A stretch of 32,000 bases of DNA from Propionibacterium freudenreichii subsp. freudenreichii (GCF_000940845.1 NZ_CP010341.1:2400001-2432000); one strand, 5' to 3'. Numbered from the stretch's first letter, positions 11,121 through 30,047 are shown. The notes: generated from the sequence alone by a model not told the origin. Translations and numbers: made by a program.

Positions 11121-11123
11121 GCG

Positions 11124-11387: not shown

Positions 11388-11858
11388 CGGGGCGACGGCT
11401 GAACGGCAGAGAGCTCGGCCTGCCCGGTCTGGCGGTAGCGCTCAGTGAGGCCACTGACTGGCGCGGCGAGGCACTCGAGCAGCTCGGCTTGGTGCGGTGG
11501 GAACCAGGGATGGGCGCGGTGCCGGTGCTGGAGGGCATCACCGCGGACCTGACGGCTCGCCGGTGGGTCCTCATCGAACGGTCCGGGCCCCGCGAGGAGC
11601 CCACGCTGCTCGTCTCTGGCTTGTTCACCGGCCCGCACCCGATCGTATGGGAGCGTCTGGTCCACCACGGCGGCGGACTCCTCCTCGCCGTCCACGACTC
11701 CGCACCGGAGGGTCAGATGCCCTCATTGTGGGTCGGTGTGGTGCGCGCCCACGTGGGTCGCGCAACCGACATGACGCCACCGGGCCCGCCGGTATATAGT
11801 GGTGCCCCGGGCTTCGGCGGCACCCCGTCTGCCACCAGGGCAGGAAGAATGACAGGAG

Positions 11859-13997
<2,139 letters not shown>

Positions 13998-14066
13998 CCC
14001 GCTGCGCGGTACTGCACCTGCGGTCATTCCGGCGCCGGGTCGGTCCGCAAGGTGGTGTGAGGTCAC

Positions 14067-14495
14067 GTGAGCGAACACGGCGGTTTGGAGGAAGACAGCT
14101 GGGCAACCTCGTTCCGGTCCCGTCTCAACTTCCTCGTGGCTATGGTGCCCCCGCCGTCTGGTGAAAAGTGGACCAACGAACTCATCGCAGAGGAGTGTTT
14201 GGCCAGGGGAGTGGAAGCCACTTACTCCAATATCGCCCATCTCAGAACGGGCCGCCGGACGAACCCGTCAGCCCGTCTCGTGGGCGCTCTAGCACAGGTT
14301 TTCGGGGTCGACGTTGACTACTTCTTCAACGATCTCCGCGCCCATCAGATTCAGAAGCAGTTCCTGGCGCTGCAACAGCTCCGCGAGTCCGGAGTGAAGA
14401 TCGAGGGCATCGCAGCCCGCGGTGAGGGTCTGAACCCCGACCTGGTGATGGAAGCCATCAGGGCTCTGCGCCGTGACTCAGACGACCGACGATGA
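14067..14495 (+). CDS. XRE-type HTH DNA-binding protein with EspR-like architecture
   Basis: FRSRLNFLVAMVPPPSGEKWTNELIAEECLARGVEATYSNIAHLRTGRRTNPSARLVGALAQVFGVDVDYFFND, followed by a helical C-terminal half. This parallels the mycobacterial EspR layout as I recall it. Confidence 0.75.
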   Translation: MSEHGGLEEDSWATSFRSRLNFLVAMVPPPSGEKWTNELIAEECLARGVEATYSNIAHLRTGRRTNPSARLVGALAQVFGVDVDYFFNDLRAHQIQKQFLALQQLRESGVKIEGIAARGEGLNPDLVMEAIRALRRDSDDRR

Positions 14496-14504
14496 CGTCG
14501 TAGA

Positions 14505-14978
14505 GTGACTCACCAGCTTGTGATCATCGACAAGCGGGGGGAGAGTCCGATGAACGTTCGACACGTGTTTTCGACGGTTCTTCGTGATGTCAGGTCAGTG
14601 GACGAGGCCATCAAAGCGACGAGCGCTGCCACAGGGCGACCCATCTGTCTCCAAGAGGTCTCATACCTAGGACAGCAGGGCCCTTCCGGTCTTCTGGTGC
14701 AGTCCGGATCATGTGATGTCATCCAGCTACCATCCGGCGTATCTGGTCGCCGTCGGGTCGGGATCATTGGTCATGAGCTTGGCCACCTCCTTCTGGGGCA
14801 TCAGCCCGAGGATCTCTCTGGCTTGTTTTCCATCGACCCGGACATCGTCAAACGGATCTTGGCTCGTCACCACTTCGACGACAGGAAGGAGCGAGACGCT
14901 GAGCTGATTGGCACGATGCTGGCTCAGACCATCGGAAGGAATCTTCAGTTCGAAGGTCTGTGGAGCTGCCTGTCATGA
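14505..14978 (+). CDS. ImmA/IrrE-like HEXXH metallopeptidase-domain protein
   Basis: IIGHELGHLLLGH motif in a 140-157 aa protein directly downstream of the HTH gene. Start uncertain (14505 or ATG 14550, MNVRHVF). Confidence 0.65.
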   Translation: MTHQLVIIDKRGESPMNVRHVFSTVLRDVRSVDEAIKATSAATGRPICLQEVSYLGQQGPSGLLVQSGSCDVIQLPSGVSGRRRVGIIGHELGHLLLGHQPEDLSGLFSIDPDIVKRILARHHFDDRKERDAELIGTMLAQTIGRNLQFEGLWSCLS

Positions 14979-15058
14979 CGATTGACCTGGTGCTTGTTGG
15001 CTTGTGGCTGGTGGGGATCGTCGACCTGACACGCACTCTGCGAGGACGATCTGATCCT
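14975..15058 (+). pseudogene. First 28 codons of a membrane protein, truncated by ISL3 copy 2
   Basis: The ATG at 14975 overlaps the peptidase stop as ATGA. Reads MTIDLVLVGLWLVGIVDLTRTLRGRSDP and then runs into the IS IRL at 15059. Confidence 0.5.
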
Positions 15059-15102
15059 GGCTCATCACAATCCACGGTGTAGTGGGGGTGTGATGGTGGC
15101 TG

Positions 15103-16488
15103 GTGTGTCGGTCACCGGGTAGGGGTCGAGGTCTTCCGAGGATGGGGGTTCTCACACCAACCCATCGGGAAGACCTCGACGTGCCTGACGCTACCTTCGC
15201 GACCCCTGACCTGACCACCTTCTGCCGGCTCGACGAGCTGGGCCTGGTTGCGGTTGGTCAACGACTCGAGCCTGGACGGGCGGTGATCGCTTGTCAGGTT
15301 GTCGAGCCGGACGACTGGTGCCACCGCTGCGGCCAGCATGGTGTGTTGCGGGACACGGTGGTGCGTCGGCTCGCTCACGAACCGCTCGGGTGGCGGCCGA
15401 CCCTGCTGGAGGTGCTCGTCCGCCGGTACCGGTGCGCCGACTGCGCTCATGTGTGGCGCCAGGACACGAGCCGGGCCGCGGAGGCCAAGACCCGACTGTC
15501 GCGCCGCGGGCTGCGGTGGGCGTTGGAAGGGATCGTGGTGCGCCACCTCACCGTGGCCCGGATCGCCGAAGGCTTGGACATCAGCTGGAACACAGCGAAC
15601 GACGCGGTGCTCGCCGAGGGTAAGCGGGTGCTGATCAACAACCCGCACCGGTTCGACAAGGTGACCACGATCGGCGTGGATGAGCACGTGTGGCGGCACA
15701 CCCGTCGCGGCGAGAAGTACGTGACCGTGATCATCGACCTGACGCCGGCAAGGACGAACAGTGGACCGGTCAGGTTGCTGGACATGGTCGAGGGCCGCTC
15801 CAAGAGCGTGTTCAAGCAGTGGTTGTCTGAGCGTGACCAGGCGTGGCGCGACCGGGTGGAGGTCGTCGCGATGGACGGCTTCACCGGATTCAAGACCGCC
15901 ACCACCGAGGAGTTGCCTGATGCGGTCGCGGTGATGGACCCCTTCCATGTCGTGAGGCTCGCCGGCGACGCCCTCGACCGGTGCCGCCGTCGAATCCAAC
16001 AGGATCTGCACGGCCACCGCGGCCGTGCCGGCGACCCGCTCTACTCGGCCCGGCGAACCCTGCACACCGGAGCATCGCTGCTCACCGACAAACAGAAGAC
16101 CCGGCTTGACGCCCTGTTCGCTGACGAGGCGCACACCGAACTTGAGGTCACCTGGGCGGCCTACCAACGCATGGTCACCGCCTACCGCGACCCCGACCCT
16201 GCTCGCGGCCGAGACCTCATGAACAAGCTCATCGCCAGCCTCGCCAGCGGCGTCCCAGCAGCGCTGGTCGAACTCCGCACACTGGGCCGCACGCTGAAGC
16301 AGCGGGCGGTCGACGTGCTGGCCTACTTCGACCGGCCCGGCACCAGCAACGGTCCCACAGAGGCGATCAATGGCCGCCTCGAGCACCTCCGCGGATCAGC
16401 CCTCGGCTTCCGCAACCTCACCCACTATGTCGCCAGATCCCTCCTCGAAACCGGCGGGTTCAGACCTCAGCTACACCGTGGATTATGA
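15103..16488 (+). CDS. ISL3-family transposase
   Basis: Identical 461-aa ORF. The probable functional start is GTG 15181 (VPDATF...), immediately after the leader hairpin. Confidence 0.95.
   Translation: MCRSPGRGRGLPRMGVLTPTHREDLDVPDATFATPDLTTFCRLDELGLVAVGQRLEPGRAVIACQVVEPDDWCHRCGQHGVLRDTVVRRLAHEPLGWRPTLLEVLVRRYRCADCAHVWRQDTSRAAEAKTRLSRRGLRWALEGIVVRHLTVARIAEGLDISWNTANDAVLAEGKRVLINNPHRFDKVTTIGVDEHVWRHTRRGEKYVTVIIDLTPARTNSGPVRLLDMVEGRSKSVFKQWLSERDQAWRDRVEVVAMDGFTGFKTATTEELPDAVAVMDPFHVVRLAGDALDRCRRRIQQDLHGHRGRAGDPLYSARRTLHTGASLLTDKQKTRLDALFADEAHTELEVTWAAYQRMVTAYRDPDPARGRDLMNKLIASLASGVPAALVELRTLGRTLKQRAVDVLAYFDRPGTSNGPTEAINGRLEHLRGSALGFRNLTHYVARSLLETGGFRPQLHRGL
15125..15180 (+). promoter_or_regulatory. 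Leader stem-loop ending at the transposase start codon
   Basis: GTCGAGGTCTTCC-GAG-GATGGG, a 14-nt loop, then CCCATC-G-GGAAGACCTCGAC gives 13-bp plus 6-bp stems. The 3' arm contains the purine-rich GGGAAG just before GTG 15181. Present in every copy and, with changed sequence, in the diverged relatives. Confidence 0.6.
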
Positions 16489-16494
16489 TGAGCC

Positions 16495-16906
16495 CCTATG
16501 GGTACTGGCCATGGCCTACGGGCCGGTGCGCCTGGTCCTGCTGGCGGTGATGGCGATCGGGGCGGTGAGTGCCACCCTGATCCTGGGAGCCGACTTGTGG
16601 GAGCGCCCACGGCGGCGAGCCCAACGTGAGCAGGTCATCCTGTTCAATTTGGCCACCACCGCGACCGTGGCCATCGGGGTTGTGGTGTTCTACCTCGTCT
16701 TATTCATCCTGTCCTGGGTCGGCGCGCTGCTGCTCATCGACGAGCAGGTACTGGCCGGTATCGCCGGGAACCCAGTGAACGCTTTGGACTACGCGAAGAT
16801 CAGCTGGCTCACCGCCAGCCTGGCCACCGTGGGCGGAGCACTAGGAGCTGGACTGGAGGACGACGATGTGGTGCGCGCCGCTGCCTACACCCGGCCCAGC
16901 ACCTGA
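16495..16906 (+). pseudogene. C-terminal (multi-TM) part of a conserved membrane protein; the N-terminal part is at 25661-26384
   Basis: Reads LWVLAMAYGPVRLVLLAVMAIGAVSATLILG...DDDVVRAAAYTRPST* in phase from the 8-bp duplication CCTATGGG. Confidence 0.85.
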
Positions 16907-16919
16907 CACAGCCCCAGCA

Positions 16920-17445
16920 CGCCACGCCCAGTCCTTCGGCAACTCGGGCCATCGACAGGTGGCCGACGACGATCCCGACCAGACCCCACCGCAGGCCGGC
17001 GCGGGAGATCTTGGCCCGCGGCGGCGCCGCAGCGGTGGTGTCCTGACGCCACACGTGCGAGCACTCCTTGCAGCGGTAGCGGCGCACGGTGAGCACCAGC
17101 GTGGTAGGGCGCCACCCGAACGGCTCGTGCGCCAACTCCCTGCTCACCGTGTCACGGGGCACGCCCTGGCAGCCGCACCGCCTGCACCAGTCGTCCGGCT
17201 CCACGACCCGGCACGCCAGCACGGACCGGTCAGGCTCGAGCAGCTGGCCGGTGACCTCCAGACCGAGGCCGTCGAGGCGGGTGAAGGTAGTCAGGTCAGG
17301 GCGCGTGAAGGTAGCGTCAGGCACGTCGAGGTCTTCCGGACGGGTTGTGTGAGAACTCCCATCATCGGAAGACCTCGACCCTCACCCCGACACCGACGCG
17401 CCGCCCCAGGTCGCACCACAGCTACACCCTCATCTGTGAAGAGCC
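16920..17445 (-). mobile_element. Relic of a second ISL3-type element (IRL plus about 130 N-terminal transposase codons)
   Basis: IRL GGCTCTTCACAGATGAGGGTGTAG (reverse complement ending at 17445), the leader hairpin, then VPDATFTRPDLTTFTRLDGLGLEVTGQLLEPDRSVLACRVVEPDDWCRRCG...ARVAEGLGV. Homology stops about 16920-16935. The inner boundary is approximate. Confidence 0.8.
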
Positions 17446-17529
17446 CCTCAAGGGCGCTGCGCGTCGCTGCGCGATGCCGCCTGCGGCGGCACCCTTGACT
17501 GCCACCCTCCACGCACCTGCTGGCAACTA

Positions 17530-18111
17530 TCAGGACGAAGGGGTGCTCTGGGCTCGGGCAAGGGCTCGGCGTACCGATGACGTGCTCACGCCGAGCACGG
17601 TGGCGATGTGCGCGTTGCTCTGGCCCTGCGCCTTCATGCGCAAGGCGGCGTCGATTCGCTCCGACCCCATGACGGTGGGGCGGCCGCCGACCCTCCCCTG
17701 GGCCCGCGCATAGGCCAGGCCGCGCCGGGTGTTCTCCCGGATCGTGTCCACGCGCAACTGAGCGAACACGGCCATAATCCCCACAATGGCCTGGCCCATC
17801 GGGCTCGACGTGTCGATGCTCAGCGCCGGCTCCGTCAAGCTCTTGATGCTCACGCCCTGCCCGATCAGGTCATGGACGATCTCGATGGCCATGACCTCGC
17901 TTCCGGCCAGCCGGTCCAGCGCCCGGAACACCAGCGTGTCGCCCGGACGCAGATAGTCGCGGCACGCCAACCACTGCGGCCGGTCGGCCGCACGGCTGGA
18001 CTCGCCGTGGTCCACGAACACGCGCTCGGCCCCGGCCGCGCGCAGCTCCGCCTCCTGGGCGGCCGGAGTCTGTTCGCGCGTGGACACGCGTGCGTACCCG
18101 ACGATCGTCAT
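17530..18111 (-). CDS. Serine recombinase (resolvase/invertase type)
   Basis: MTIVGYARVSTREQ catalytic N-terminus, a resolvase core, and a C-terminal HTH (SNAHIATVLGVSTSSVRRAL). The ATG at 18111 overlaps the upstream stop as ATGA. Confidence 0.9.
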   Translation of the reverse strand: MTIVGYARVSTREQTPAAQEAELRAAGAERVFVDHGESSRAADRPQWLACRDYLRPGDTLVFRALDRLAGSEVMAIEIVHDLIGQGVSIKSLTEPALSIDTSSPMGQAIVGIMAVFAQLRVDTIRENTRRGLAYARAQGRVGGRPTVMGSERIDAALRMKAQGQSNAHIATVLGVSTSSVRRALARAQSTPSS

Positions 18112-18887
18112 CGGCTCCCCCGTCCTCTCGGCTCTCCTCGGTGCGGGTCGTCATCGTCATCGCGCTTCGCGCGACGCCGTTCCATCTCGCTCTCGATACG
18201 TTCGTGCAGGCCAGCCCGGGTGTTCTCACGCCGGACGCGGGCGTGAATGCTCGATGCCCACGCCTTGGTGCGCATCTTCACATCGTCGAGCTGACCAGCC
18301 GTCAGACCGTAGACGCGCACCTCTTCGGGCTGGATACGCTCCACGTTGTCAAGGTTCTGGGCGAACCATCCCAGGTCGAAGCCAGCATCGACTCCCCGGA
18401 CCAAGTCCAGCAGTTCCTCGTCGCTGTACCGGCCGGAACGCCGGATCGCGTCCACATCGAGGTAGTCGCGGGTCTCGGCCCGCGAGAACAGGGCCCCGAC
18501 CTTGTTGCCCACCGCGTCCTCAATGGACAAGACGGGCCCGACCTCCAGCCGCACGGGCGGGTGAGCCCGCCAGTCCACGCCCAGGTCCATGTCAGTGCTG
18601 CGCCCTTGCGCGCTGACGATGGTGAGCTGGGCGAACGTGTCCTGCCGCCGGCGGCTCTCCACGGTGTAGCCGGCCGCACGCAGCGCCGCAATGATCCGGT
18701 CGAGCGACGTGCCGAACCGTGCCTGGGCCTGCTGGACGGTGAACAGGTCCACGTCCTCGGTGGGCCGGTCGATCAGCCCGTGCTCACGGATCGCGCCCGA
18801 GCCGGCCAGGGCGAAGCCGGCATCGTCGCCGACGGCCTCCAAGGCCAGGCGCGTGATGCGCCGCTGCTCCTCCTGATCTCTGCTCAC
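18108..18887 (-). CDS. DUF1814 nucleotidyltransferase toxin (AbiEii / MenT type)
   Basis: NTase motif FALAGSGAIREHGLIDRPTEDVDLFT near the N-terminus of a ~259-aa protein. I take the GTG at 18887, which overlaps the upstream stop as GTGA. The track ORF extends to 19094 inside the upstream gene. Confidence 0.8.
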   Translation of the reverse strand: MSRDQEEQRRITRLALEAVGDDAGFALAGSGAIREHGLIDRPTEDVDLFTVQQAQARFGTSLDRIIAALRAAGYTVESRRRQDTFAQLTIVSAQGRSTDMDLGVDWRAHPPVRLEVGPVLSIEDAVGNKVGALFSRAETRDYLDVDAIRRSGRYSDEELLDLVRGVDAGFDLGWFAQNLDNVERIQPEEVRVYGLTAGQLDDVKMRTKAWASSIHARVRRENTRAGLHERIESEMERRRAKRDDDDDPHRGEPRGRGSR

Positions 18888-19216
18888 ACGACGACCCGAA
18901 GCCGGGGGAACCTCTTCTCCCACAGGCCGCGCACGCGCGGATCCATGTTCAGAATCGGCCACGCCTCGATGAGCCGATCTCGGTTCATCAAGCGGCGCTG
19001 CTGATCGGCAGTCCCCTCGGCGAGCAACGCCTGGTAAGCCATGCGACGCCAACCCAGGTTCGACACGTCCACGTCGAACCGATCGGCCTGCCAACGCACA
19101 GAGTGTGGCAGGTCGATGGGCCCGTCATAGGGTCCGCGCAGCTCGTCGAGCGAAGCGGGCGCGTCATAGGGCTTGACATCGCGGAACCGCACACGAGCCG
19201 CTGTCACCTCAGCCAT
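18884..19216 (-). CDS. 110-aa protein, candidate cognate antitoxin or partner of the NTase
   Basis: Position and 4-nt coupling to the NTase gene. I could not recognise a wHTH/AbiEi domain in MAEVTAARVRFRDVKPYDAPASLDELRGPYDGPIDLPHSVRWQ... Confidence 0.55.
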   Translation of the reverse strand: MAEVTAARVRFRDVKPYDAPASLDELRGPYDGPIDLPHSVRWQADRFDVDVSNLGWRRMAYQALLAEGTADQQRRLMNRDRLIEAWPILNMDPRVRGLWEKRFPRLRVVV

Positions 19217-19572
19217 GGCCCGCCTCCTTCCATCTCATCCCAGTTTACCCGGCCAGGTCGAAAACGGTCTATCACCCGTTTCGGTTTCGGTGGGGGTTTT
19301 GACCACCCTTCGACCGCCAACTTACGCGGGTCATGTCAGTTTCCGAAGTCGGCTGCACGGAAGTTCGAAGTCGTCTGCACTCTGTGCTCAGGTATGCCGC
19401 GCGAGCGCTCGGGTGCAGGTCGATGGGACGCCTCCAGGGATGTCCCTGGAGGTCCTGGAGGCCGCCATGGCCACCGACGCGGGCTGGAATCTGTTGCGGT
19501 CGCGTCGTGTGGGCTGTGGTGGTATCATGGGAAAGACGAGGCCCGGAGGGCCGGGCCACCGGTCACTGAGAG

Positions 19573-20058
19573 GTGATGGTGAAGATGACTGCTCTGGATC
19601 CGTTCCGTGAGATTGAGCGTTTGCTGGGCACGGCCATGCGTCAGGCCCCGTCTGCAGCGGCGATTCCGATGGATCTGTACCGCTCGGGTGATGATGCCTT
19701 TGTCGCCAAGATCGACCTGCCGGGCGTGGACCCGGACTCGATCGATATCGATGTCGATGACCGCACGTTGACGGTGCGCGCCGAGCGGCGCCCGGAGGAA
19801 GCGGAGGCGCAGTGGCTGGTGCGGGAGCGGCCTGCGGGGATTTTCGCCCGTCAACTCACCTTGGGTCGGGGGTTGGCGACGGACCGCATCGAGGCCGGCT
19901 ATGCCGACGGGGTGCTGACGTTGACGATTCCGGTGGCTGAGGAGTCCAAGCCGCGCAAGATCCAGGTCACGGCCTCCGACCGCACGGCAGCGATCGAACA
20001 GGGGTCCTCCTCCGGCGAGCAGCAAGCCACCGGCGAGGGATCGGGGCAGAGGCAGTAG
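19573..20058 (+). CDS. Hsp20 / alpha-crystallin small heat-shock protein (copy 1)
   Basis: Alpha-crystallin core PMDLYRSGDDAFVAKIDLPGVDPDSIDIDVDDRTLTVRAER...GYADGVLTLTIPV. Start ambiguous (GTG 19573, ATG 19576 or ATG 19585). Confidence 0.9.
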   Translation: MMVKMTALDPFREIERLLGTAMRQAPSAAAIPMDLYRSGDDAFVAKIDLPGVDPDSIDIDVDDRTLTVRAERRPEEAEAQWLVRERPAGIFARQLTLGRGLATDRIEAGYADGVLTLTIPVAEESKPRKIQVTASDRTAAIEQGSSSGEQQATGEGSGQRQ

Positions 20059-20202
20059 AGGGATCGCGGACGCCGGCGCGAGCGGGACGCCGGCGTCCGC
20101 GGCGGGACACCTCCCGTCTCCTGGTCGGCTGCCACTGGGACGCCCGGCTCCCTGCGCGACTCAACGGCTCACCTCGCTGCAGGCGCTCCCGCCTGGGGTA
20201 GC

Positions 20203-21295
20203 TGTACTTCCCCGGGAGGTTGTGAACGGGTGAGGTAGCGAAGACCTCCGGGCAGGATGTGGGTTACCACACTCACTCTCCTGACCACGGAGGTCTTCGT
20301 GACTCACGCTAACGCACCCTTGACACCGGAAGGGCGTCGTCGTCTTGCTGTTCTCGTCGTGGAACAGGGCTGGTCGTTGCGGCGGGCGGCGGAACGGTTC
20401 CAGTGCTCGCCCGCGACGGTGAAGCGGTGGGCCGACAGGTACCGGGCAGGGCTGCCGTTGATCGACCGTAGTTCGAGGCCCACCTCGTCACCGAACCGGC
20501 TTTCGCGTAAGACGGAGCATCGGATCGTCGCGTTGCGGTTCACTCGCCGGTGGGGTCCGCACCGGATCGCGTATCACCTGCGGTTGCACCGTTCCACGGT
20601 CGGTCGGGTGCTCGCCCGATACAAGATGCCGAAGCTGATCAACATCGACCAGGCCACCGGGCTGCCGGTTCGCCGCCCGAAGCCGACACGGTACGAGGTC
20701 GCCGCGCCGGGCGAGCTCGTGCACGTAGATATCAAGAAACAAGGCCGGATCCCCGACGGCGGCGGGTGGCGTGCCCACGGTCGCGGATCCATGCAGGACC
20801 GTCACGCGGGAGTGGCCCGCGACAAGGCAGCCCGTGCCGGGGCAGCCGGCTCTCGCGGCTACCGGTATCTGCACCACGCCGTGGACGACCACTCCCGGAT
20901 CGCGTACTCAGAGATCCTTGACGACGAGCGCAAAGAGACCGCAGCGGGGTTCTGGACCCGCGCGAACGCGTTCTTCGCAGGCCTGGGCGTCACAGTCACC
21001 GCGGTGATGACCGACAACGGTTCCTGCTACCGGTCAGGCGCCTTCGCTGACGCGCTCGGCGACGAGGTGAAGCACAAGTGGACCCGGCCATACCGGCCGC
21101 AGACCAACGGCAAGGTCGAGCGGTTCAACCGAACCCTCGCCGTCGAGTGGGCCTACGCGAAGCCCTACGCCAGCGAAGCCGAGCGCGCCGCAGCCTACGA
21201 GACCTGGCTCCATCACTACAATCACCACAGACCCCACACCGGGATCGGCGGCCAGACTCCCTCAGCCCGCGTTCACAACGTCACGGGGAAGTACA
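20203..21295 (+). mobile_element. IS481-family insertion sequence (1093 bp) with intact target duplication
   Basis: 12-bp IRs TGTACTTCCCCG (20203-20214) and CGGGGAAGTACA (21284-21295). Direct 6-bp repeats GGTAGC at 20197-20202 and 21296-21301. Confidence 0.9.
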
Positions 21296-21300
21296 GGTAG
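20299..21300 (+). CDS. IS481-family (IS3-superfamily DDE) transposase
   Basis: HTH N-terminus, then the rve core HVDIKK...YLHHAVDDHSR...TDNGSCY...RPYRPQTNGKVERFNRTL. GTG 20299 lies 5 nt after GGAGG. The stop TAG 21298-21300 lies in the target duplication outside the IS. Confidence 0.9.
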   Translation: MTHANAPLTPEGRRRLAVLVVEQGWSLRRAAERFQCSPATVKRWADRYRAGLPLIDRSSRPTSSPNRLSRKTEHRIVALRFTRRWGPHRIAYHLRLHRSTVGRVLARYKMPKLINIDQATGLPVRRPKPTRYEVAAPGELVHVDIKKQGRIPDGGGWRAHGRGSMQDRHAGVARDKAARAGAAGSRGYRYLHHAVDDHSRIAYSEILDDERKETAAGFWTRANAFFAGLGVTVTAVMTDNGSCYRSGAFADALGDEVKHKWTRPYRPQTNGKVERFNRTLAVEWAYAKPYASEAERAAAYETWLHHYNHHRPHTGIGGQTPSARVHNVTGKYR

Positions 21301-21348
21301 CCCCCATCAGAAAAGAAGCCACAGAGGGTCCAGGTGCGGGAATAAAAC

Positions 21349-21367
21349 CTGAGCGTGGTTCGCTCAA
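21349..21367 (+). promoter_or_regulatory. HAIR-like inverted repeat (candidate HspR operator) upstream of hsp20 copy 2
   Basis: CTGAGC-N7-GCTCAA has the spacing of the actinobacterial HspR operator consensus CTTGAGT-N7-ACTCAAG, with imperfect arms. It lies 40 nt upstream of the hsp20 start. Confidence 0.4.
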
Positions 21368-21369
21368 CT

Positions 21370-21394
21370 ATGTGATCTTGATATGTGATCTTGA
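21370..21394 (+). repeat. Tandem 12-bp direct repeat ATGTGATCTTGA x2 (13-bp period)
   Basis: Exact copies at 21370-21381 and 21383-21394, in a locally AT-rich patch just upstream of the RBS GAGGAAGG. Confidence 0.8.
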
Positions 21395-21406
21395 GACGAG
21401 AGGAAG

Positions 21407-21874
21407 GTGATGGTGATGGCACTGCCTGTTCGTGGCGGCAACACGGAGATCACCCATCGGGATCCTTTCAGCGAACTGCACGACCTCACCACCCGGATGA
21501 ACCAGCTCGTCCAGTCCGCGCTGGGCGACTTCCCCAACCGGGTCGCCTCGCTCTGGGCCCCGCCGGTAGAGCTGGAGGAGACAGAGGGCTCCTACGTTCT
21601 GGAGGCTGACCTGCCCGGTGTGAAGGAGGACGACGTTGACCTCGAGCTGCGCGGCAACGAGCTGAGCATCCACGGCGAGGTCAAAGAACGGGAGCGGACC
21701 GGCATCCTACGCCGGAGCACACGCCAAGTCGGGCAGTTCGAGTACCGCGTGACGCTGCCGGCCGACGTCGACCCAGACCAGGTCAACGCCACGCTACGCG
21801 ACGGTGTCCTGCGGGTGGAGGTGGCCAAGACCGAGGCCACCCAGCCACGCCGCATCCAAATCACGAAGGGCTGA
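21407..21874 (+). CDS. Hsp20 / alpha-crystallin small heat-shock protein (copy 2)
   Basis: PPVELEETEGSYVLEADLPGVKEDDVDLELRGNELSIHGE...LRDGVLRVEVAK. The start context AGGTGATGGTGA is the same as for copy 1. Confidence 0.9.
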   Translation: MMVMALPVRGGNTEITHRDPFSELHDLTTRMNQLVQSALGDFPNRVASLWAPPVELEETEGSYVLEADLPGVKEDDVDLELRGNELSIHGEVKERERTGILRRSTRQVGQFEYRVTLPADVDPDQVNATLRDGVLRVEVAKTEATQPRRIQITKG

Positions 21875-22030
21875 ACGCAGCTCCACGCCGCGTCCCCACG
21901 CGAGAAATCAGAGGGAGGTCCTCCCCATTCAGAAGACCCGCACTGCCACCAACCTCATGGCCGGGTACATCTAGGCATCTGAGGAACCCGGGCGACCTCA
22001 CAGACCGGGTCACCACAAACTATCTCGTCC

Positions 22031-23998
22031 TCAGACTGTGATCACATCGCCGAGAACGACCGATCGGGTTCGCGGAATCCGGAAGGCCGTGGTGCGGTCG
22101 GCCTGGTTCCTCGACAGCGTGAGGTAGACGAGCCGCCGCCAGGTGGCCATCGGGCATCTGGATGCCAATGGGTCGGTGTCGTCGGCGCGACGTATGTTGG
22201 CCACTGACAGGAAGTAGACAGCTTCCTGCATGTGCATCCGGGGGTCGGGGAGCTGGTCCATGACCAGCGCCAGGGCGGACGGAATGTTCTGGGAGTCGGC
22301 GAAACCGACATGGCACTCGACGTATGCGATGCCGTCGTCGGGGTCCCCGAGGTCGGTGACCCTGATCCGATCCCGATGAGGGATGTGGGAGATGTTCTCA
22401 TCAACCATCGAGATGATGACGTTGTGCTCATGGAGCACATGGTTGAACTGGATATTGTTGCGCAGCGCGAGTGGTGTGGTGACCCGGCCCGGATGCGGGT
22501 AGATCGCCAAACCGGGAACCCGAGTCGGTCGATCGTCCTTGATACGAGCCAGGAAGTCATCCAGCGGCCCCTCGGCGGAGGCACGACTGGAGACGACGAA
22601 CGCGGTGCCCTTGCGCCACGCCGTCATGATGACGATGATCGCACCGGCGATCACCAACGGAATCCAGCCCCCCGAGGTGATCTTGAGCAGATTGGCCGCG
22701 AGGAGAGACAGCTCCAGGCCACCGATGACCACTGCTATCGGCAGAACTCGCCACCACGACCAGTCCCAGACGAGGCGGACCAGGATCAGGAAGAGGGCCG
22801 TGGTGAGCAGCAGGGTTCCGGTCACGGCGAGTCCGTAGGCGGTGGATAACCGTGCCGACGTGCGGAAAGCGCCGATGAGCAGCAGAACACCGAGGTAGAG
22901 CATCCAGTTGACCTCGGGAATGTAGATCTGGCCGCCCTCCTCCCGAGAAGTGTGGCGAATCGAGAAGCGAGGCAGCAGGCCAAGCCTGGAGGCTTGATGG
23001 GAGACCGAGAACGTGCCGGATATCACAGCCTGGGAGGCAATGATGGTGGCCAGAGTGGCGATCACCACCAGCGGGACCTGTGCCCACTGCGGCGCAGTTC
23101 GGAAGAAGGGGTTGTCGATCCAGGCGGGATGAAGAATGATCATGGCGCCCTGCCCGAGGTAGTTCAGCATGAGAGCAGGCAGCACCACCGAGAACCAGGC
23201 GATGCGGACCCGGCGGCTGCCGAAGTGGCCCATGTCGGCGTAGAGCGCCTCCGCTCCCGTGACGGTCAGCACGACCGCCCCCATGGCGACGAAAGCCGTC
23301 CACGGGCGCTCAAGGACGAACAGCAGGGCCCACTGGGGTGACAGCGCCATCAGGATCTGAGGACAGCGAAGAATCCACGGTGCCCCCAGCGCGGCGATGC
23401 TGATGAACCAGACCAGCATGATGGGTCCGAACGCCCGTCCAATCACCGCGGTACCCCTCTGCTGGATGACGAACAGGGCGGTGAGGATAACCACCGCGGC
23501 GGGCAGCACCATCCGAGTCAGACCGGGATCGATGACGGCGGCACCCTCGAGGGCGCTCATCACCGAAATCGCGGGCGTGATCATTGAGTCCCCGTAGAAC
23601 AGCGCCGCCCCCACCATTCCGATTCCCATCGTCACAGCGGCGAGTCGGCAGCGTGAGGGGATGTGGCGTTGCAGCAGAGCCATGAGGGCCAAGATGCCGC
23701 CCTCGCCCCCGTTGTCGGCACGCATCACGAGGGTGACGTACTTGATGCAGACGATGAGCAGGATGGACCAGATGACCAGCGAGATGATGCCGATGACGTT
23801 GTCGCGGCTGGGTACGGCGGTGTGGTGATCGATCGCGAAGACGGTCTGCATGGAGTAGAGGGGTGAGGTGCCGATGTCGCCGAACACGACACCCAGCGCA
23901 GCGAGCACGAGCCCTCGAGCGGGGGAATACGGTGCCTTGGATGGTCTCTGTCGCCATAAAGGCAGACTCCGGTGATCGCTGTGTGTGGACACGAGCAT
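22031..23998 (-). CDS. kup: KUP-family potassium uptake transporter
   Basis: Hallmark LAALGVVFGDIGTSPLY, a multi-TM body and a cytoplasmic C-terminal domain. I prefer ATG 23998 (AAGGGAG RBS 4 nt upstream) over the track start at 24094. Confidence 0.93.
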   Translation of the reverse strand: MLVSTHSDHRSLPLWRQRPSKAPYSPARGLVLAALGVVFGDIGTSPLYSMQTVFAIDHHTAVPSRDNVIGIISLVIWSILLIVCIKYVTLVMRADNGGEGGILALMALLQRHIPSRCRLAAVTMGIGMVGAALFYGDSMITPAISVMSALEGAAVIDPGLTRMVLPAAVVILTALFVIQQRGTAVIGRAFGPIMLVWFISIAALGAPWILRCPQILMALSPQWALLFVLERPWTAFVAMGAVVLTVTGAEALYADMGHFGSRRVRIAWFSVVLPALMLNYLGQGAMIILHPAWIDNPFFRTAPQWAQVPLVVIATLATIIASQAVISGTFSVSHQASRLGLLPRFSIRHTSREEGGQIYIPEVNWMLYLGVLLLIGAFRTSARLSTAYGLAVTGTLLLTTALFLILVRLVWDWSWWRVLPIAVVIGGLELSLLAANLLKITSGGWIPLVIAGAIIVIMTAWRKGTAFVVSSRASAEGPLDDFLARIKDDRPTRVPGLAIYPHPGRVTTPLALRNNIQFNHVLHEHNVIISMVDENISHIPHRDRIRVTDLGDPDDGIAYVECHVGFADSQNIPSALALVMDQLPDPRMHMQEAVYFLSVANIRRADDTDPLASRCPMATWRRLVYLTLSRNQADRTTAFRIPRTRSVVLGDVITV

Positions 23999-24224
23999 CT
24001 GACTCCCTTGTTGACAGCGGCAGCGCCACTCACCCTGGATGCGCTCCGCCCGACCGACCTGATGGCGCACTGCACTCTGGGCAGGCGCAATCATCGATCA
24101 AATCGCGGCACGCGCAGGAGTGGCGCGATCCTCACGAAATCCATACGGTGGAAGGGGCAATGCTTGCAGAATCCTCACGGCCGCAAGGGTCCCCTCCGCG
24201 CTTCCAGGAATGATCGCCGAGCTG

Positions 24225-25660
24225 GGCTCATCATAATCCACGGTGTAGCTGAGGTCTGAACCCGCCGGTTTCGAGGAGGGATCTGGCGACATAGTGGGTG
24301 AGGTTGCGGAAGCCGAGGGCTGATCCGCGGAGGTGCTCGAGGCGGCCATTGATCGCCTCTGTGGGACCGTTGCTGGTGCCGGGCCGGTCGAAGTAGGCCA
24401 GCACGTCGACCGCCCGCTGCTTCAGCGTGCGGCCCAGTGTGCGGAGTTCGACCAGCGCTGCTGGGACGCCGCTGGCGAGGCTGGCGATGAGCTTGTTCAT
24501 GAGGTCTCGGCCGCGAGCAGGGTCGGGGTCGCGGTAGGCGGTGACCATGCGTTGGTAGGCCGCCCAGGTGACCTCAAGTTCGGTGTGCGCCTCGTCAGCG
24601 AACAGGGCGTCAAGCCGGGTCTTCTGTTTGTCGGTGAGCAGCGATGCTCCGGTGTGCAGGGTTCGCCGGGCCGAGTAGAGCGGGTCGCCGGCACGGCCGC
24701 GGTGGCCGTGCAGATCCTGTTGGATTCGACGGCGGCACCGGTCGAGGGCGTCGCCGGCGAGCCTCACGACATGGAAGGGGTCCATCACCGCGACCGCATC
24801 AGGCAACTCCTCGGTGGTGGCGGTCTTGAATCCGGTGAAGCCGTCCATCGCGACGACCTCCACCCGGTCGCGCCACGCCTGGTCACGCTCAGACAACCAC
24901 TGCTTGAACACGCTCTTGGAGCGGCCCTCGACCATGTCCAGCAACCTGACCGGTCCACTGTTCGTCCTTGCCGGCGTCAGGTCGATGATCACGGTCACGT
25001 ACTTCTCGCCGCGACGGGTGTGCCGCCACACGTGCTCATCCACGCCGATCGTGGTCACCTTGTCGAACCGGTGCGGGTTGTTGATCAGCACCCGCTTACC
25101 CTCGGCGAGCACCGCGTCGTTCGCTGTGTTCCAGCTGATGTCCAAGCCTTCGGCGATCCGGGCCACGGTGAGGTGGCGCACCACGATCCCTTCCAACGCC
25201 CACCGCAGCCCGCGGCGCGACAGTCGGGTCTTGGCCTCCGCGGCCCGGCTCGTGTCCTGGCGCCACACATGAGCGCAGTCGGCGCACCGGTACCGGCGGA
25301 CGAGCACCTCCAGCAGGGTCGGCCGCCACCCGAGCGGTTCGTGAGCGAGCCGACGCACCACCGTGTCCCGCAACACACCATGCTGGCCGCAGCGGTGGCA
25401 CCAGTCGTCCGGCTCGACAACCTGACAAGCGATCACCGCCCGTCCAGGCTCGAGTCGTTGACCAACCGCAACCAGGCCCAGCTCGTCGAGCCGGCAGAAG
25501 GTGGTCAGGTCAGGGGTCGCGAAGGTAGCGTCAGGCACGTCGAGGTCTTCCCGATGGGTTGGTGTGAGAACCCCCATCCTCGGAAGACCTCGACCCCTAC
25601 CCGGTGACCGACACACCAGCCACCATCACACCCCCACTACACCGTGGATTGTGATGAGCC
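24225..25660 (-). mobile_element. ISL3-family insertion sequence, copy 3 (1436 bp)
   Basis: Same ends as copy 1. Plus-strand flanks are CCGAGCTG (left, IRR side) and CCCATAGG (right, IRL side). Confidence 0.95.
24231..25616 (-). CDS. ISL3-family transposase
   Basis: Identical 461-aa ORF. Confidence 0.95.
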   Translation of the reverse strand: MCRSPGRGRGLPRMGVLTPTHREDLDVPDATFATPDLTTFCRLDELGLVAVGQRLEPGRAVIACQVVEPDDWCHRCGQHGVLRDTVVRRLAHEPLGWRPTLLEVLVRRYRCADCAHVWRQDTSRAAEAKTRLSRRGLRWALEGIVVRHLTVARIAEGLDISWNTANDAVLAEGKRVLINNPHRFDKVTTIGVDEHVWRHTRRGEKYVTVIIDLTPARTNSGPVRLLDMVEGRSKSVFKQWLSERDQAWRDRVEVVAMDGFTGFKTATTEELPDAVAVMDPFHVVRLAGDALDRCRRRIQQDLHGHRGRAGDPLYSARRTLHTGASLLTDKQKTRLDALFADEAHTELEVTWAAYQRMVTAYRDPDPARGRDLMNKLIASLASGVPAALVELRTLGRTLKQRAVDVLAYFDRPGTSNGPTEAINGRLEHLRGSALGFRNLTHYVARSLLETGGFRPQLHRGL

Positions 25661-26384
25661 CCCATAGGTCCGCGGCCACCAATGTCAGTATGTCGGTGGC
25701 CGCTGCCACGACCAGCGCCCGGGAGAGCCGGGCCACGAAGGCCCAAGGCTGGTTGGCGCGGATCATGCCCAGCAGCAACCGCACGTTGCCGCTCAGCACT
25801 CGGGCCGTGAACTGCACGACGTTGTCGTCCGGGCGTTCGTCGAGGTCGGTGGACAGCTGGTGGGCTCTTCGAGCAAGATCCCGCTGGGCGTTGGGGTCTT
25901 CGGCGTCGTAGCCCAGGAGCTGCCCGACCACGTGCACGGTGGTCTCTTGCACCTTCTGCCGCACGTGCACGGGTCCCAGGGTTGGGACGGAGACCAGTCC
26001 TACCCCGTGCACGGGGCTGAGCTGGGTGAGCACCGGACGTCGGCCGGTCTTCAGGGGGATCTCGGTGAGCACCACGGCCAAATCCCAGTTCTCCTCCAGC
26101 ACGCGGTTTCGGGCCGCCTCCCGCAGGTCCAAGGTCTCGGTGGGTGGATCGACCAGCCGGTCTTCGGCCATCTTCAGTTGCCAGCGCACTCCCGGATACC
26201 GCTGCACCAAAATCTTGCGCACCGAGGTGGTGACCTCGGGGCCGAGCACCGCATTCAGGGATGGTGAGACCACCAGGCCGATGAGCAGCTCGGCATCGGA
26301 AAGGGGTTCGGCAGGATCGGCGGTGGATCGGCAACGCTCAGCAGTCACCGCTCCATGGTGAGGCAACCACGGTCGGATTGCCAC
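25661..26384 (-). pseudogene. N-terminal (cytoplasmic domain plus first TM) part of the membrane protein completed at 16495-16906
   Basis: ...LVDPPTETLDLREAARNRVLEENWDLAVVLTEIPLKTGRRPVLTQLSPVHGVGLVSVPTLG...AATDILTLVAADLW, then an IS-derived tail. A conserved-hypothetical type; I cannot name a family. Confidence 0.8.
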
Positions 26385-26822
26385 TGGCTCGATGGAGCCC
26401 CCAAGGTTTCGTGCAGCACCGCGGGCCGGATTCGGTGGTCGCCTCGATCCCGGAAAGAGCGGTGCTGCTCACTGAAATCCTCTCCCCGCCGACGCCGCCA
26501 GCGCGAAGACATCACAGCCAGCGGGCCCGGGACCTGCCGGTGTCGAGGACGACTTCTCGATGATGCTGCAGTGACGGATCGGTTGAAGTGCTTCGGCGGT
26601 GTGGGAGCAGTGATCAGCGTGGGGCCGGTCGATTCCGTTCGGACAGGTGATGCATCGACTGCCCAGCGGCAGGTGCGGTACTGATGCGGGGGTACCCGGT
26701 GCAGGGGTGTCAAGGCCCAGCTCCGAAGACGGCAAGCCGGGCACGTGAAAGGCGAATTATAGCCCGCCGCAACCCGAGCGGGAAGGCATGTGTGGCACGA
26801 GGCGCCGAAGACGGGCCGGGCG

Positions 26823-26851
26823 TTTACTGCAGAGATAAATATGCTTATCCT
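26823..26851 (+). promoter_or_regulatory. Sigma-70-like promoter candidate in an AT-rich island
   Basis: TTTACT, a 17-nt spacer, then TATCCT, within the only AT-rich patch (about 26825-26870) of an otherwise ORF-poor 890-bp region. Confidence 0.3.
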
Positions 26852-27274
26852 GGTAAGGTCCGCGACATTTTGTAAGGCCCTGAGAGCGGGCCCGTCGCTG
26901 GTCCACCACGGACCGACGGGCTCGGGGATGGGGCTGAGGACCCGGAGAGGAGCCACGGCCGTGGCCGAGCTGATGCGCAAGGACCTTGATGCGTTCGGGT
27001 CTTTCTACCGCCACCTGCACCGACGGGGTGCTGGTGATTTCGGGCTCCGATGCCGAGTCGGAGCCAGTGGCAGAAGTCCACGAAGATCGCAGGCACCGCG
27101 GCTGAACGGCCGATACCGAGGGGGAGGAAGGGAGGCCAGGGCTGCTGATGTGCCCGGACTGTTCCGCAATTTCTCTTCCTAACTTTCCGTCCACTCCCGA
27201 CCCAGGTGCCCGGCAACCCCGGGTGCAGGCCACCGTCCGGGTCGGATCGTCACCACGAACAGGAAACGATAAGC

Positions 27275-27754
27275 ATGTCCCATCCCTCCCCTCTTCCACC
27301 CACTGCTTCGGCTCATTACCAGGTCCTGCGCACAGTGCCCTCCTATGACGAGGCTCAGCGCCTTGTCGACCGACTCTCCGACGCCGGGTTCCCGGTTGAG
27401 CACGTGCGCTTGGTCGGCACCGATCTGCGCCTGGTTGAGCAGGTCACCGGGCGGATGACCTACGGCAAGGCCGCCCTGTACGGGGCCGCCTCCGGAGCCT
27501 GGCTGGGATTGCTCATTGGCTTGCTGTTGGGTCTTTTCACGGTCGTGGGGTGGCTGTCGGTAATCCTGTGGGCGGTACTCCTGGGCGCGGTGTGGGGGCT
27601 GATCTTCGGGTTGCTGGGCCACGCGGCCACCGGCGGGCGCCGGGACTTCAGTAGCGTCCAGGGCCTGGAGGCGTCCTCCTACGAGATTCTTGTGGAGGCC
27701 GAGTACTTCGAGGCGGCCACGGCCAAGCTCGACGCCAGCCGTCCCACGACTTGA
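27275..27754 (+). CDS. YflT/general-stress-type membrane protein
   Basis: N-terminal soluble domain VLRTVPSYDEAQRLVDRLSDAGFPVEHVRLVGTDLRLVEQVTGR followed by two Gly-rich TM helices. ATG 27275 is preferred to the track start at 27206. Confidence 0.7.
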   Translation: MSHPSPLPPTASAHYQVLRTVPSYDEAQRLVDRLSDAGFPVEHVRLVGTDLRLVEQVTGRMTYGKAALYGAASGAWLGLLIGLLLGLFTVVGWLSVILWAVLLGAVWGLIFGLLGHAATGGRRDFSSVQGLEASSYEILVEAEYFEAATAKLDASRPTT

Positions 27755-28080
27755 CCGCCAAAGGCCCGGGCCCGGACCGGGTGCTGGCCCACGCCCGAGT
27801 AAGTGCTGAGGGCCGTGGCCCTCTGCGCTCCCCCGACACTCACCGCTGGAACGGATTCAGGAGCGGATCTCGCCGGGAAGCAGGGACGTCGGCGTGCCTG
27901 TCACCACCAACCGGGAGCCTGCTCGGCTCTGCCGAGCGTGATCCCCGCAGTTGCCTGCAGTGGACCCCGACAGCTTCGTCCCCAAGACCCTCTGTCAGGG
28001 GCATCCCAGGTAATCACCCGCGGGACCGTCCGAGGCATTCTCCGGCCACAGCGATGGCCTCGACCGGATCGGAGCAGCCC

Positions 28081-29314
28081 GGCGGATTCAAGCGGTCAGT
28101 GCAACGAGTCCTGTGAGATGAGGCAGTCACTGATCACAGGAGGATCCGGATGCAGGGCAGGCACGGTCATCTCAGCCGGGAGCAGAAGCAGCTCGCGCTC
28201 AGGCTGCACGGGAAGGGCTGGCGGCTGGTCGACATCGCGAAGGAGATCGGCTGCAGCGCGCCGATGGTCGGCATCATGGCCCGCACCGGCAGGCACCTTG
28301 ACGCCAGGCCGTTCGGGTGGGAGCCACGTCAGGGCTGTCTGACGATCGACGAGCGCGAGCAGATCCTGCTGGGCATCAATCGCGGCGATACCTTCACCGC
28401 GATCGCCGAGCAGCTGGGGCGTGCGGTGTCGACCGTCAGCCGTGAGGTGAAGCGCGGTGGGGGTCGCTGCGGCTACTCGGCGTGGCGTGGTCATGAACGT
28501 GCCCGCGAGCAGGCGCGCCGACCGAAGCCGTTCAAGCTTGCGTCGGGCCGGCTGCTCGAGGAGGTTGCCAGCCGGCTGGAGCAACTGTGGTCACCTGAGG
28601 AGATCGCGGCGCGCCTACGGTTGGATCACGCCGACGACCCGGAGATGCGCGTGAGCCACGAGACGATCTACCAGTCGCTGTTCGTGCAGGGCCGAGGCGA
28701 ACTGCGCCGTGAGCTGGCGCGGTGCCTGCGGTCCGGAAGATCGGCCCGCAAGCCCCGCCGAACCACGGACGGTCGCGGCCGCATCCCCGGCATGATCATG
28801 CTCAGCGAGCGCCCCGCAGAAGCCGACGACCGCGCCGTGCCAGGCCACTGGGAAGGTGATCTCATCCTCGGCGAGGGCAGCCGCAGCGCCATCGGCACGC
28901 TCGTTGAGCGCTCGACGCGAATGACACTGCTGCTGCACCTGCCCGACGGCAAGAGCGCCGAGCAGGTCGAGGCCGCGATGCGCGCCGCAATCAGCAAGCT
29001 GCCGTCCTCGTTGATCCGAACGATCACCTGGGACCAAGGCGCGGAGATGTCCAAGCACGCCGCGTTCTCCATCGCCACAGGAATCCCGATCTACTTCTGC
29101 GATCCCCACTCGCCCTGGCAGCGGGGGAGCAACGAGAACACCAACGGCCTGCTGCGCCAGTACCTACCCAAAGGCACCGACCTGAGCGTCGTCAGCCGCG
29201 AGGAGTTGGACGCGATCCAGGACAGCCTCAACGGACGCCCCCGCAAGACGCTGGGCTATCTGACACCATCAGAGAAGCTCGCAGAGTTCCTTGCGCCCAT
29301 CGCTTGAATCCGCC
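28081..29314 (+). mobile_element. IS30-family insertion sequence (1234 bp)
   Basis: IRs GGCGGATTCAAGCG (28081-28094) and CGCTTGAATCCGCC (29301-29314), extending imperfectly to about 26 bp. No matching flanking duplication. Confidence 0.85.
28150..29307 (+). CDS. IS30-family transposase
   Basis: 385-aa ORF with N-terminal HTHs, GHWEGDLI, ITWDQGAEM and SPWQRGSNENTNGLLRQYLPKG, typical of IS30 DDE transposases. Confidence 0.93.
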   Translation: MQGRHGHLSREQKQLALRLHGKGWRLVDIAKEIGCSAPMVGIMARTGRHLDARPFGWEPRQGCLTIDEREQILLGINRGDTFTAIAEQLGRAVSTVSREVKRGGGRCGYSAWRGHERAREQARRPKPFKLASGRLLEEVASRLEQLWSPEEIAARLRLDHADDPEMRVSHETIYQSLFVQGRGELRRELARCLRSGRSARKPRRTTDGRGRIPGMIMLSERPAEADDRAVPGHWEGDLILGEGSRSAIGTLVERSTRMTLLLHLPDGKSAEQVEAAMRAAISKLPSSLIRTITWDQGAEMSKHAAFSIATGIPIYFCDPHSPWQRGSNENTNGLLRQYLPKGTDLSVVSREELDAIQDSLNGRPRKTLGYLTPSEKLAEFLAPIA

Positions 29315-29629
29315 ATCGAGTTCGCCCTGCGCAGCTCACGCACTTCCTTCTCCAGCTCGACCAGGCGCTGGGACTCGCTGGTCGTGGTCCCGGGACGGTG
29401 CCCCTCGTCAACCTCGGCCTGCACGACCCAGTTCCTCAGAGTCTCAGGATTGATCCCGAGCTGCTCGCCCACACGGCGAAACGTTCCCGACCTCGTCGAT
29501 GGATCGCGCCGTGACTGAACTGCCATCCTCGTGGCTCTCTCCCGAAGTTCGTCGGGGTACTTCCTCGGTGCTGCCATGCTCCTCATCCTCCCGTGGATTC
29601 AGAGCCTCCACCAGACCCGGGGCGATTCA
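29315..29629 (-). mobile_element. IS3-family fragment 2 (left end plus 5' part of orfA), cut by the IS30 element
   Basis: Strong RBS GGGAGGATGAGGAGC, then the ATG at 29577: MAAPRKYPDELRERATRMAV...LGINPETLRNWVVQAEVDEG...LEKEVRELRRAN. This ends at the IS30 IRR. The candidate terminal TGAATCGCCCC lies at 29629-29619; that outer boundary is approximate. Confidence 0.7.
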
Positions 29630-29925
29630 CCAGGCCGACACCGAGCTGCGGGGCGATGGCACGTATCGACTCTGCGCGCGGGCCTCCCTCGCGCGCCTGG
29701 CGCTCGTAGACCATCCGCACGGCGCGGTCACGCAGCTCGGGACTGAACTTCTTGGGCATACTCCGATTCTCCTTGCTGAGACTCGGAACAGAACCCAGGA
29801 CGCTTCACCCGCACCCCAAAACACGAATCGCGCCACCGTTAGTAAACGATGACGCGACTCATGACATACGGGGTGCCTGAGTAGTACGTTCGGCAACTCC
29901 GCCCCCAAGACAAAAACCCTGGTCA
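29630..29925 (-). mobile_element. IS3-family fragment 1 (left end plus first ~42 codons of orfA), interrupted by fragment 2
   Basis: AAGGAG RBS, then the ATG at 29758: MPKKFSPELRDRAVRMVYERQAREGGPRAESIRAIAPQLGVG. Homology then breaks. The candidate terminus TGACCAGGG is at 29925-29917 (tentative). Confidence 0.55.
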
Positions 29926-30047
29926 ACCGCCTAGACCGTGGGGTCTACGAGGTCTCTCGACGTCCCCAGGATACCGCTCCGAAGGATGATCGTGGCCCTG
30001 TTGCGAGCACTGTCGAGACGGCTCAAACTTTTCTGACCGACTCCGAG

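Follow-up and report, generated by a model that had tools for sequence, protein, structure and literature searches.

An ISL3-family insertion in an uncharacterised membrane-protein gene of Propionibacterium freudenreichii, with inversion of a 7.7-kb segment between inverted copies of the element

We analysed a 32,000-nt stretch of Propionibacterium freudenreichii subsp. freudenreichii (NZ_CP010341.1:2400001-2432000; hereafter the window, in which all positions are counted from the first letter) and found a gene for an uncharacterised membrane protein that is split by a 1436-bp insertion sequence (IS) of the ISL3 family. The two gene parts no longer adjoin the same copy of the IS: they stand next to two different copies, which lie in inverted orientation on either side of a 7.7-kb segment (16495-24224), and each part carries its own copy of one 8-bp target duplication. 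Very probably the IS inserted in the gene with duplication of its target, and homologous recombination between two inverted copies then turned the segment round.

The window holds three copies of the IS (copies 1-3; Table 1), identical at 1436 of 1436 bp, with copy 2 inverted relative to copies 1 and 3. Each copy ends in 24-bp inverted repeats that agree at 23 of 24 positions (GGCTCATCA[T/C]AATCCACGGTGTAG); throughout, the left end (left inverted repeat, IRL) is the one near the transposase start, and the opposite end is the right inverted repeat (IRR). The single open reading frame (ORF) of 461 amino acids encodes an ISL3 transposase (Pfam DDE_Tnp_ISL3, E=2.2e-57; 362.9 bits with the ISL3 equivalog NCBIfam NF033550, whose cut-off is 180). 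The type of DDE transposase, the compact one-ORF layout with GGCTC-type inverted repeats and the 8-bp duplication all place the element in the ISL3 family, of whose members a compact size is expected. The duplication length is read from CCCATAGG on both sides of one copy in other genomes, from a second interrupted ORF that is restored across a single TGAATACC, and from the single 8-mer in empty sites, all described below.

The 8 bp beside the IRR of copy 2 read CCTATGGG; those beside the IRL of copy 3 read, on the plus strand, CCCATAGG, the exact reverse complement. Read in IS orientation, the IRR and IRL flanks are TGAATACC and CGTTTCGC for copy 1, CCCATAGG and AGGATCAG for copy 2, and CCGAGCTG and CCCATAGG for copy 3. 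At this base composition the probability that two 8-mers match by chance is 3.5e-5 for one comparison and 3e-4 when all nine pairings of an IRR flank with an IRL flank in the window are considered. The two halves of one target duplication are thus found on different copies and in reverse complement, the pattern left by a reciprocal exchange of flanks, and the copies that bracket 16495-24224 are inverted and identical. When one IS and one 8-mer are removed, i.e. when the reverse complement of 25661-26384 is joined to 16503-16906, an ORF of 1128 nt (375 codons and a stop) results, in which the halves meet in frame at codon 242 (...AATDILTLVAADLW/VLAMAYGPVRLV...); related records annotate 363 amino acids, starting from a downstream start codon. 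The original prediction, made from the sequence of the window alone, had named the shared duplication, the common codon phase of the gene halves and the single ORF, all of which we find; its length of about 378 codons was close only.

With the rebuilt ORF as query, a search of 5.8 billion proteins gave 596 homologues at E<=1e-3. Among the top 120 of them, the majority are 330-420 amino acids long and cover 84-100% of the query, and full-length homologues, which had been proposed as a check, are thus numerous; they are found in Pseudarthrobacter, Arthrobacter, Kocuria, Blastococcus, Gordonia and other hosts, and all are annotated as 'hypothetical'. A hydropathy scan shows a soluble N-terminal part of about 220 residues and then four hydrophobic segments within residues 220-328, the first of which contains the IS insertion point. 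Pfam, NCBIfam and PDB sequence searches gave no relative of the rebuilt protein, and our description therefore goes no further than 'membrane protein'. A chance match between unrelated fragments, or two genes that were always separate, is ruled out by the homologues together with the empty sites.

Such empty sites are present in three IS-free relatives. The closest is a metagenome contig (L041) that is 99.5% identical to the window, has the same neighbourhood and carries the gene intact (363 amino acids annotated). Its order runs from the end of glgX (window 13893-14067) through reversed 21921-21296 and reversed 20202-16495 to 25661-29935, with a single CCCATAGG at the joint; the order in the window is the glgX side, IS, 16495-24224, IS, and 25661 onward. 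As both outside flanks keep their orientation in L041 and in the window, only the middle segment has been flipped; a second contig (L040) agrees for the glgX side. Further away, a 1.6-kb module with the intact gene is found at 98% identity on another metagenome contig (L001) and on the Rhodococcus plasmid pYLL1 (L004). On both of them the window halves overlap by exactly 8 bp, and the 8-mer is single; the gene parts are thus not separate genes in IS-free relatives. The inversion of 16495-24224 between two identical, inverted copies had been foreseen correctly, as had its cargo: kup, two hsp20 genes, an IS481-family element and the toxin-recombinase genes all lie within the segment, as judged by family matches.

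To see how this locus is arranged elsewhere we used loci from 22 genomes, 99-100% identical to the window and gathered by exact-protein look-ups, among them FN806773.1 and the LT6187xx PacBio genomes of P. freudenreichii (the latter described in PMC5644110). Each end of the 1436-bp IS was located in these loci and its flank read; the search for duplication partners took in 50 loci. Two genomes, LT618792.1 (strain JS20) and CP124208.1, show the plain insertion, with CCCATAGG on both sides of one 1436-bp copy. In three others (CP030279.1, CP053853.1 and LT618789.1) the kup flank CCGAGCTG and the ImmA flank AGGATCAG are on one copy, in the un-inverted place. Window-like pairings also occur: the kup flank is joined to the 5' gene half in eight genomes, and the 3' gene half to the ImmA flank in five. 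Both orientations of 16495-24224 are therefore present in the species, in long-read assemblies and complete genomes. Besides the window, 17 related loci have the flank of 15051-15058 next to an IRL, and 18 have the flank of 24217-24224 next to an IRR; other IRL flanks are TGAATACC, GGTTGACA, GGACAACC, AGATAAGG, TCAGCGCG and GGTAAGAA. Across the 22 genomes no fewer than nine IRL flanks in all are seen in combination with three IRR flanks, and from this variety of pairings it follows that copies of the IS have swapped flanks many times. The gene itself, conserved and uncharacterised, is inactivated in all 22 genomes and broken in either orientation of the segment, while kup has the same IS end upstream in both; the event is without an obvious regulatory role.

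Taken together, these data fit the following series of steps. An active copy of the IS inserted in the 363-375-codon gene for an uncharacterised actinobacterial membrane protein, duplicating the 8-bp target CCTATGGG. The other copy, identical in sequence but facing the other way, would have stood at a distance of 7.7 kb, with an ImmA-like gene on one side and kup on the other. The homologous recombination machinery of the host, acting on this inverted pair, would then have flipped the segment with an ISL3 relic, the recombinase-AbiEii genes, the two hsp20 genes, the IS481-family element and kup; because the segment was flipped, each gene half, together with its copy of the duplication, now abuts a different IS copy. 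We infer that the exchange was of the RecA type, inside the IS, and that it was a single-step event in this lineage. This account is favoured by the existence of the plain-insertion state. It is also supported by a second ordinary duplication made by the same IS, the halves of which are likewise found on different copies: when 5958-6592, a part of an amidohydrolase-2 gene that is cut by copy 1, is joined to the 'M' flank of another locus (L032, 1927-2268), one ORF runs across a single TGAATACC. In addition, IS copies inside one genome carry common private single-nucleotide polymorphisms (SNPs) whatever their flanks, and genomes differ in them (window and L008-L050); for instance, both intact copies of LT618785.1 have 200C, 1285A and 1391G, none of which is present in the window copies. 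Such a pattern looks like the signature of copies that recombine with or convert each other. It may reflect concerted evolution by conversion or a recent spread from one master copy.

The same observations have to be weighed against a one-step route, intramolecular replicative transposition in trans, in which the single kup/ImmA copy would attack CCTATGGG in the same molecule and thereby produce the inversion, a second copy and both reverse-complement 8-mers at one stroke, as for IS26 and Tn4401. Matched inverted 8-mers on two inverted copies are exactly the pattern that has been assigned to the in-trans pathway (PMC4471558). One event starting from a one-copy ancestor would suffice, the donor would need no duplication of its own, and the copies are indeed identical. 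However, it neither needs nor predicts a simple-insertion intermediate, and the simple-insertion state of LT618792.1 and CP124208.1 would require a later re-inversion; this weakens the in-trans route, which keeps some standing only because recombination or re-inversion could recreate the plain-insertion state. The other ordinary duplication of the same IS, TGAATACC, which is now likewise split between copies, argues in the same direction, and members of the ISL3 family have been reported to form circular intermediates rather than cointegrates. Moreover, the relocation of these transposase genes within P. freudenreichii has been called a 'copy and paste' of the element alone (PMC5644110). We regard the in-trans origin of the arrangement as distinctly unlikely.

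Several observations nevertheless weigh against insertion followed by a single recombination. The exact precursor that it predicts, in which one copy has the kup and ImmA flanks and the other has the two gene halves, is found in no sampled genome, and the exact junction pair of the window in no other sampled genome. In all other genomes position 31357 is joined directly to 8029 (the two are contiguous in L008-L010 and L013-L020), so that the lineage of the window must have undergone at least one further rearrangement and the path may be multi-step; the repeated exchange of flanks likewise means that the real path may comprise more than one step. The kup/ImmA partner copy also lacks a target duplication: neither CCGAGCTG nor AGGATCAG has a duplication partner at any of the IS ends read in the 50 loci. 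The original prediction had correctly noted that the remaining flanks, CTGATCCT and CCGAGCTG, do not match, and had concluded that the partner copy had lost its duplication. That it stands without one is borne out by CP030279.1, CP053853.1 and LT618789.1; a loss is plausible, and it may equally never have had one. L040 and L041 lack the whole block of XRE gene, ImmA-like gene, IS and kup (14068-15058 and 21922-24224) and have 26 bp of unrelated sequence in its place (L040 7250-7277, L041 175-202). With the block missing there, the partner copy may mark the point where DNA from two sources was joined, or may be left over from a deletion between copies. SNPs inside the IS were tried as a means of locating the crossover; the copies are identical in the window and nearly so within each genome, and because the three window copies are identical no crossover point is visible.

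Finally, the long-range order of the window rests on its own assembly across 1.4-kb repeats. If the true order were un-inverted, wrong flanks could have been joined through these repeats, and with three identical repeats both isomers are compatible with the same junction sequences. The only other assembly that has a window-specific junction (GCA_900000125.1; L007, L011) is broken at every IS copy, and exact-protein look-ups found no record of the IS-fusion ORFs 25626-26384 and 7965-8375. On the other hand, the window spans all three copies in one piece, which suggests long reads, and the junctions kup-IS-5' half and 3' half-IS-ImmA are those already counted in eight and five other genomes, PacBio assemblies included. 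Independent assemblies span the repeats with the same junctions, namely a 119.8-kb contig of GCA_030235435.1, which matches window 8029-24979 at 99.95%, a 2.65-Mb contig and the PacBio genomes. An assembly artefact is thus quite improbable, and even if the order of the window were wrong, the gene would still be split and the inversion still polymorphic in the species.

The segment also contains a gene for a serine recombinase (17530-18111), a 193-amino-acid protein of the resolvase/invertase type, and site-specific inversion by this enzyme at sites in the IS copies would be another way of turning the segment. The protein has a weak match to a DNA-invertase model, which at 28.5 bits is far below the cut-off of 272. 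However, the exchange of flanks takes in many IS copies elsewhere in the chromosome and not only the pair around the recombinase gene, and a role of the enzyme is for this reason extremely unlikely. The recombinase moreover travels together with AbiE toxin-antitoxin genes, in a block that shares 91% identity with plasmid DNA; this suits a plasmid resolvase. No invertase-type sites were identified.

A composite transposon made up of copies 2 and 3 and their cargo was rejected. Two copies of one IS do bracket kup, hsp20 and toxin-antitoxin genes as in such an element; yet the outer flanks, CTGATCCT and CCCATAGG, differ, so the unit was not inserted here as a transposon. By contrast, in LT618785.1 a whole 23-kb block is situated between two direct copies flanked by TGAATACC.

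The octamer CGTTTCGC occurs twice in the window, at the IRL of copy 1 (8029-8036) and, at 31348-31355, beside the IRL of another ISL3 element, which shares ~77% identity with the IS; in all other strains it occurs once, inside the intact gene for a third tyrosine recombinase. A single simple insertion does not account for an 8-mer that two different elements share. Ordinary insertions with recombination would lead one to expect CGTTTCGC and then GGCTCATCATAATCC beyond the second ISL3 element. As a further alternative, the transposase itself may have shaped the region, by a one-step replicative inversion between copies 2 and 3 and by an IS-dimer-like abutted-end junction, marked by CGTTTCGC at 8028/8029 and 31355/31356, that fused an excised 23-kb circle with the chromosome. 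To our knowledge neither replicative inversion nor abutted-end fusion is documented for the ISL3 family, and we hold this alternative to be unlikely.

Table 1. Features of the window that bear on the insertion, the inversion and their surroundings
Feature	Position	Strand	Remarks
Amidohydrolase-2 gene, C-terminal part	5958-6592	-	Cut by copy 1; duplication TGAATACC at 6585-6592; N-terminal part outside the window
ISL3 copy 1	6593-8028	-	Same orientation as copy 3; from identity to the other two copies
Third tyrosine recombinase, N-terminal part	8029-8375	-	Cut at CGTTTCGC (8029-8036) by IRL of copy 1
Recombinase-trio gene	8365-9144		Has catalytic domain
Recombinase-trio gene	9293-10234		Intact, 313 amino acids
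Non-matching flank CTGATCCT	15051-15058	+	At IRL of copy 2; intergenic, after ImmA-like gene 14505-14978
ISL3 copy 2	15059-16494	+	IRL at 15059, IRR at 16494; transposase ORF 15103-16488
Unique segment, inverted versus IS-free order	16495-24224	.	7.7 kb; comparison with L041, complete genomes
Target duplication, copy A	16495-16502	+	CCTATGGG; adjoins IRR of copy 2; read directly
3' gene part, codons 242-375 and stop	16503-16906	+	Translation; contains the greater part of the four hydrophobic segments
Relic of a different ISL3 element	16918-17447	-	Identity to the IS 70-74%; immediately follows the gene on its 3' side; ORF 16809-17324 matches Zn_ribbon_ISL3
Serine recombinase, AbiEii toxin gene and small upstream ORF	17530-19216	-	Recombinase 17530-18111, AbiEii 18108-19094; Pfam
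Two HSP20 genes	19573-21874	+	19573-20058 and 21407-21874; family matches; IS481-family element between them
IS481-family element	20203-21295		Between the HSP20 genes; 6-bp duplication GGTAGC; empty site in L015
kup potassium transporter	22031-24094	-	Pfam K_trans, E=8e-175
Non-matching flank CCGAGCTG	24217-24224	+	At IRR of copy 3; 130 bp upstream of kup
ISL3 copy 3	24225-25660	-	IRR at 24225, IRL at 25660; transposase ORF 24231-25616, minus strand
Target duplication, copy B	25661-25668	-	CCCATAGG on plus strand; adjoins IRL of copy 3; read directly
5' gene part, codons 1-241	25661-26384	-	Translation, homologues; contiguous with the 3' part in L041, L004 and L001
Third tyrosine recombinase, C-terminal part	30700-31355	-	Ends at CGTTTCGC (31348-31355)
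Different ISL3 element, IRL end	31356-32000	+	~77% identical to the IS; runs off the window

Parts of the flipped segment and of its surroundings have close relatives on plasmids. The AbiEii-recombinase block (17445-19329) shares 91% identity with 31-kb plasmids from Cutibacterium acnes and C. granulosum. For the membrane-gene module (25661-26840 and 16495-16920) the identity to Rhodococcus and Nocardia plasmids is 98-98.5%, and over 6 kb the contig of L040, which bears the title Acidipropionibacterium thoenii DSM 20276, reaches 99.8%. The plasmid and A. thoenii matches together indicate recent exchange across genera. The IS481-family element is not present in L015, L040 and L041 and is found at other sites in CP120878.1, so that it is mobile in the species as well; the stop codon of its transposase ORF falls in the flanking duplication. 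In LT618777.1 (L027, about 12428-12460) a gap of 5 bp separates the IRR of the IS from the end of another ISL3 element (…GTGAAGAGCC-ATACC-GGCTCATCAT…), and going by this locus ISL3 elements may tend here to insert at the ends of resident copies. At the cut amidohydrolase gene, the other half with the matching TGAATACC adjoins a different IS copy in LT618785.1, LT618792.1 and CP124208.1, and the remnant in the window has an in-frame TGA.

On a larger scale, positions 8029-31355 form a 23.3-kb block that comprises a recombinase trio, glgX, the XRE and ImmA genes, an IS copy, the kup-hsp20-AbiE segment, another IS copy, YflT and an IS30 element. This block is cyclically permuted between strains (compared in L008, L013-L015, L032, L037 and L044), and it is the one that is enclosed by direct IS copies in LT618785.1. 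Such an arrangement is to be expected of an integrated circle or a large composite transposon, and it suggests that a plasmid-like unit entered the chromosome more than once or by more than one route. In L041 the block is followed not by the recombinase trio but by dnaK, grpE, dnaJ, a MerR-family gene and clpB (10359-20285), a stretch that resembles the 'heat shock island' of strains JS9 and JS20 (PMC5644110).

The recombinase trio is a 3248-bp unit (30539-31355 plus 8037-10467) with three tandem tyrosine recombinase genes on the same strand, the arrangement that defines recombinase-in-trio (RIT) elements; the second and third genes are frameshifted in all strains seen. The unit has 155-bp inverted repeats that are 90% identical, and their outer 34 bp resemble ISL3 terminal repeats (GGCTC[AT]TC...GTGTAG...GGTCTG). 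Relatives with 76-99% identity are found in several actinobacterial genera (L055-L058, L063 and L065-L067). Tessaracoccus massiliensis has four copies, and the relatives in Tessaracoccus, Actinomyces, Nostocoides and others end at the same GGCTC...GTGTAG termini; with flanking inverted repeats and multiple copies the trio thus has the marks of mobility as a unit. No 8-bp duplication was seen. The mode of movement of such elements is unknown (PMC3414803, PMC5737581). The ISL3-like ends of the trio may merit separate attention.

Inversions mediated by insertion sequences are textbook events. In P. freudenreichii, ISL3, IS3, IS30 and IS481 elements make up 3.5% of the genome (PMC2909200), and large transposon-mediated inversions as well as identical ISL3 transposase genes that move within strains have been described (PMC5644110). 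The present case resembles those inversions in that identical IS copies in opposite orientation bracket a block with transposases at its edges, in the same species and with the same IS family. The 7.7-kb inversion and the split membrane gene were not found described there, and in the present case the duplication, the IS-free contig and two simple-insertion genomes allow the ancestry to be followed at the level of single bases. The method of tracing duplications comes from work on IS26, for which replicative transposition in trans is the preferred reading (PMC4471558). In that system, too, there are two inverted copies, an 8-bp target in reverse complement and a gene split between them. However, IS26 belongs to the IS6 family, which is known to form cointegrates, whereas the element studied here is an ISL3 member, and a simple-insertion intermediate exists here, which favours insertion and then recombination. 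A study of ISL3 elements in Enterococcus says nothing on the mechanism (PMC13216065).

The event is real and well supported, and it is already known in kind, because transposon-mediated inversions have been reported for the species; it reveals neither a new mechanism nor a regulatory switch. Its value is that of a clean, fully traceable case of IS insertion followed by inversion, and in practical terms it is modest. It does mean that the gene order around this IS is not to be trusted in short-read assemblies of P. freudenreichii. Beyond the single inversion, it draws attention to a 23-kb plasmid-like block with stress genes (hsp20, kup, YflT and glgX) that exists in many structural isomers among dairy strains.

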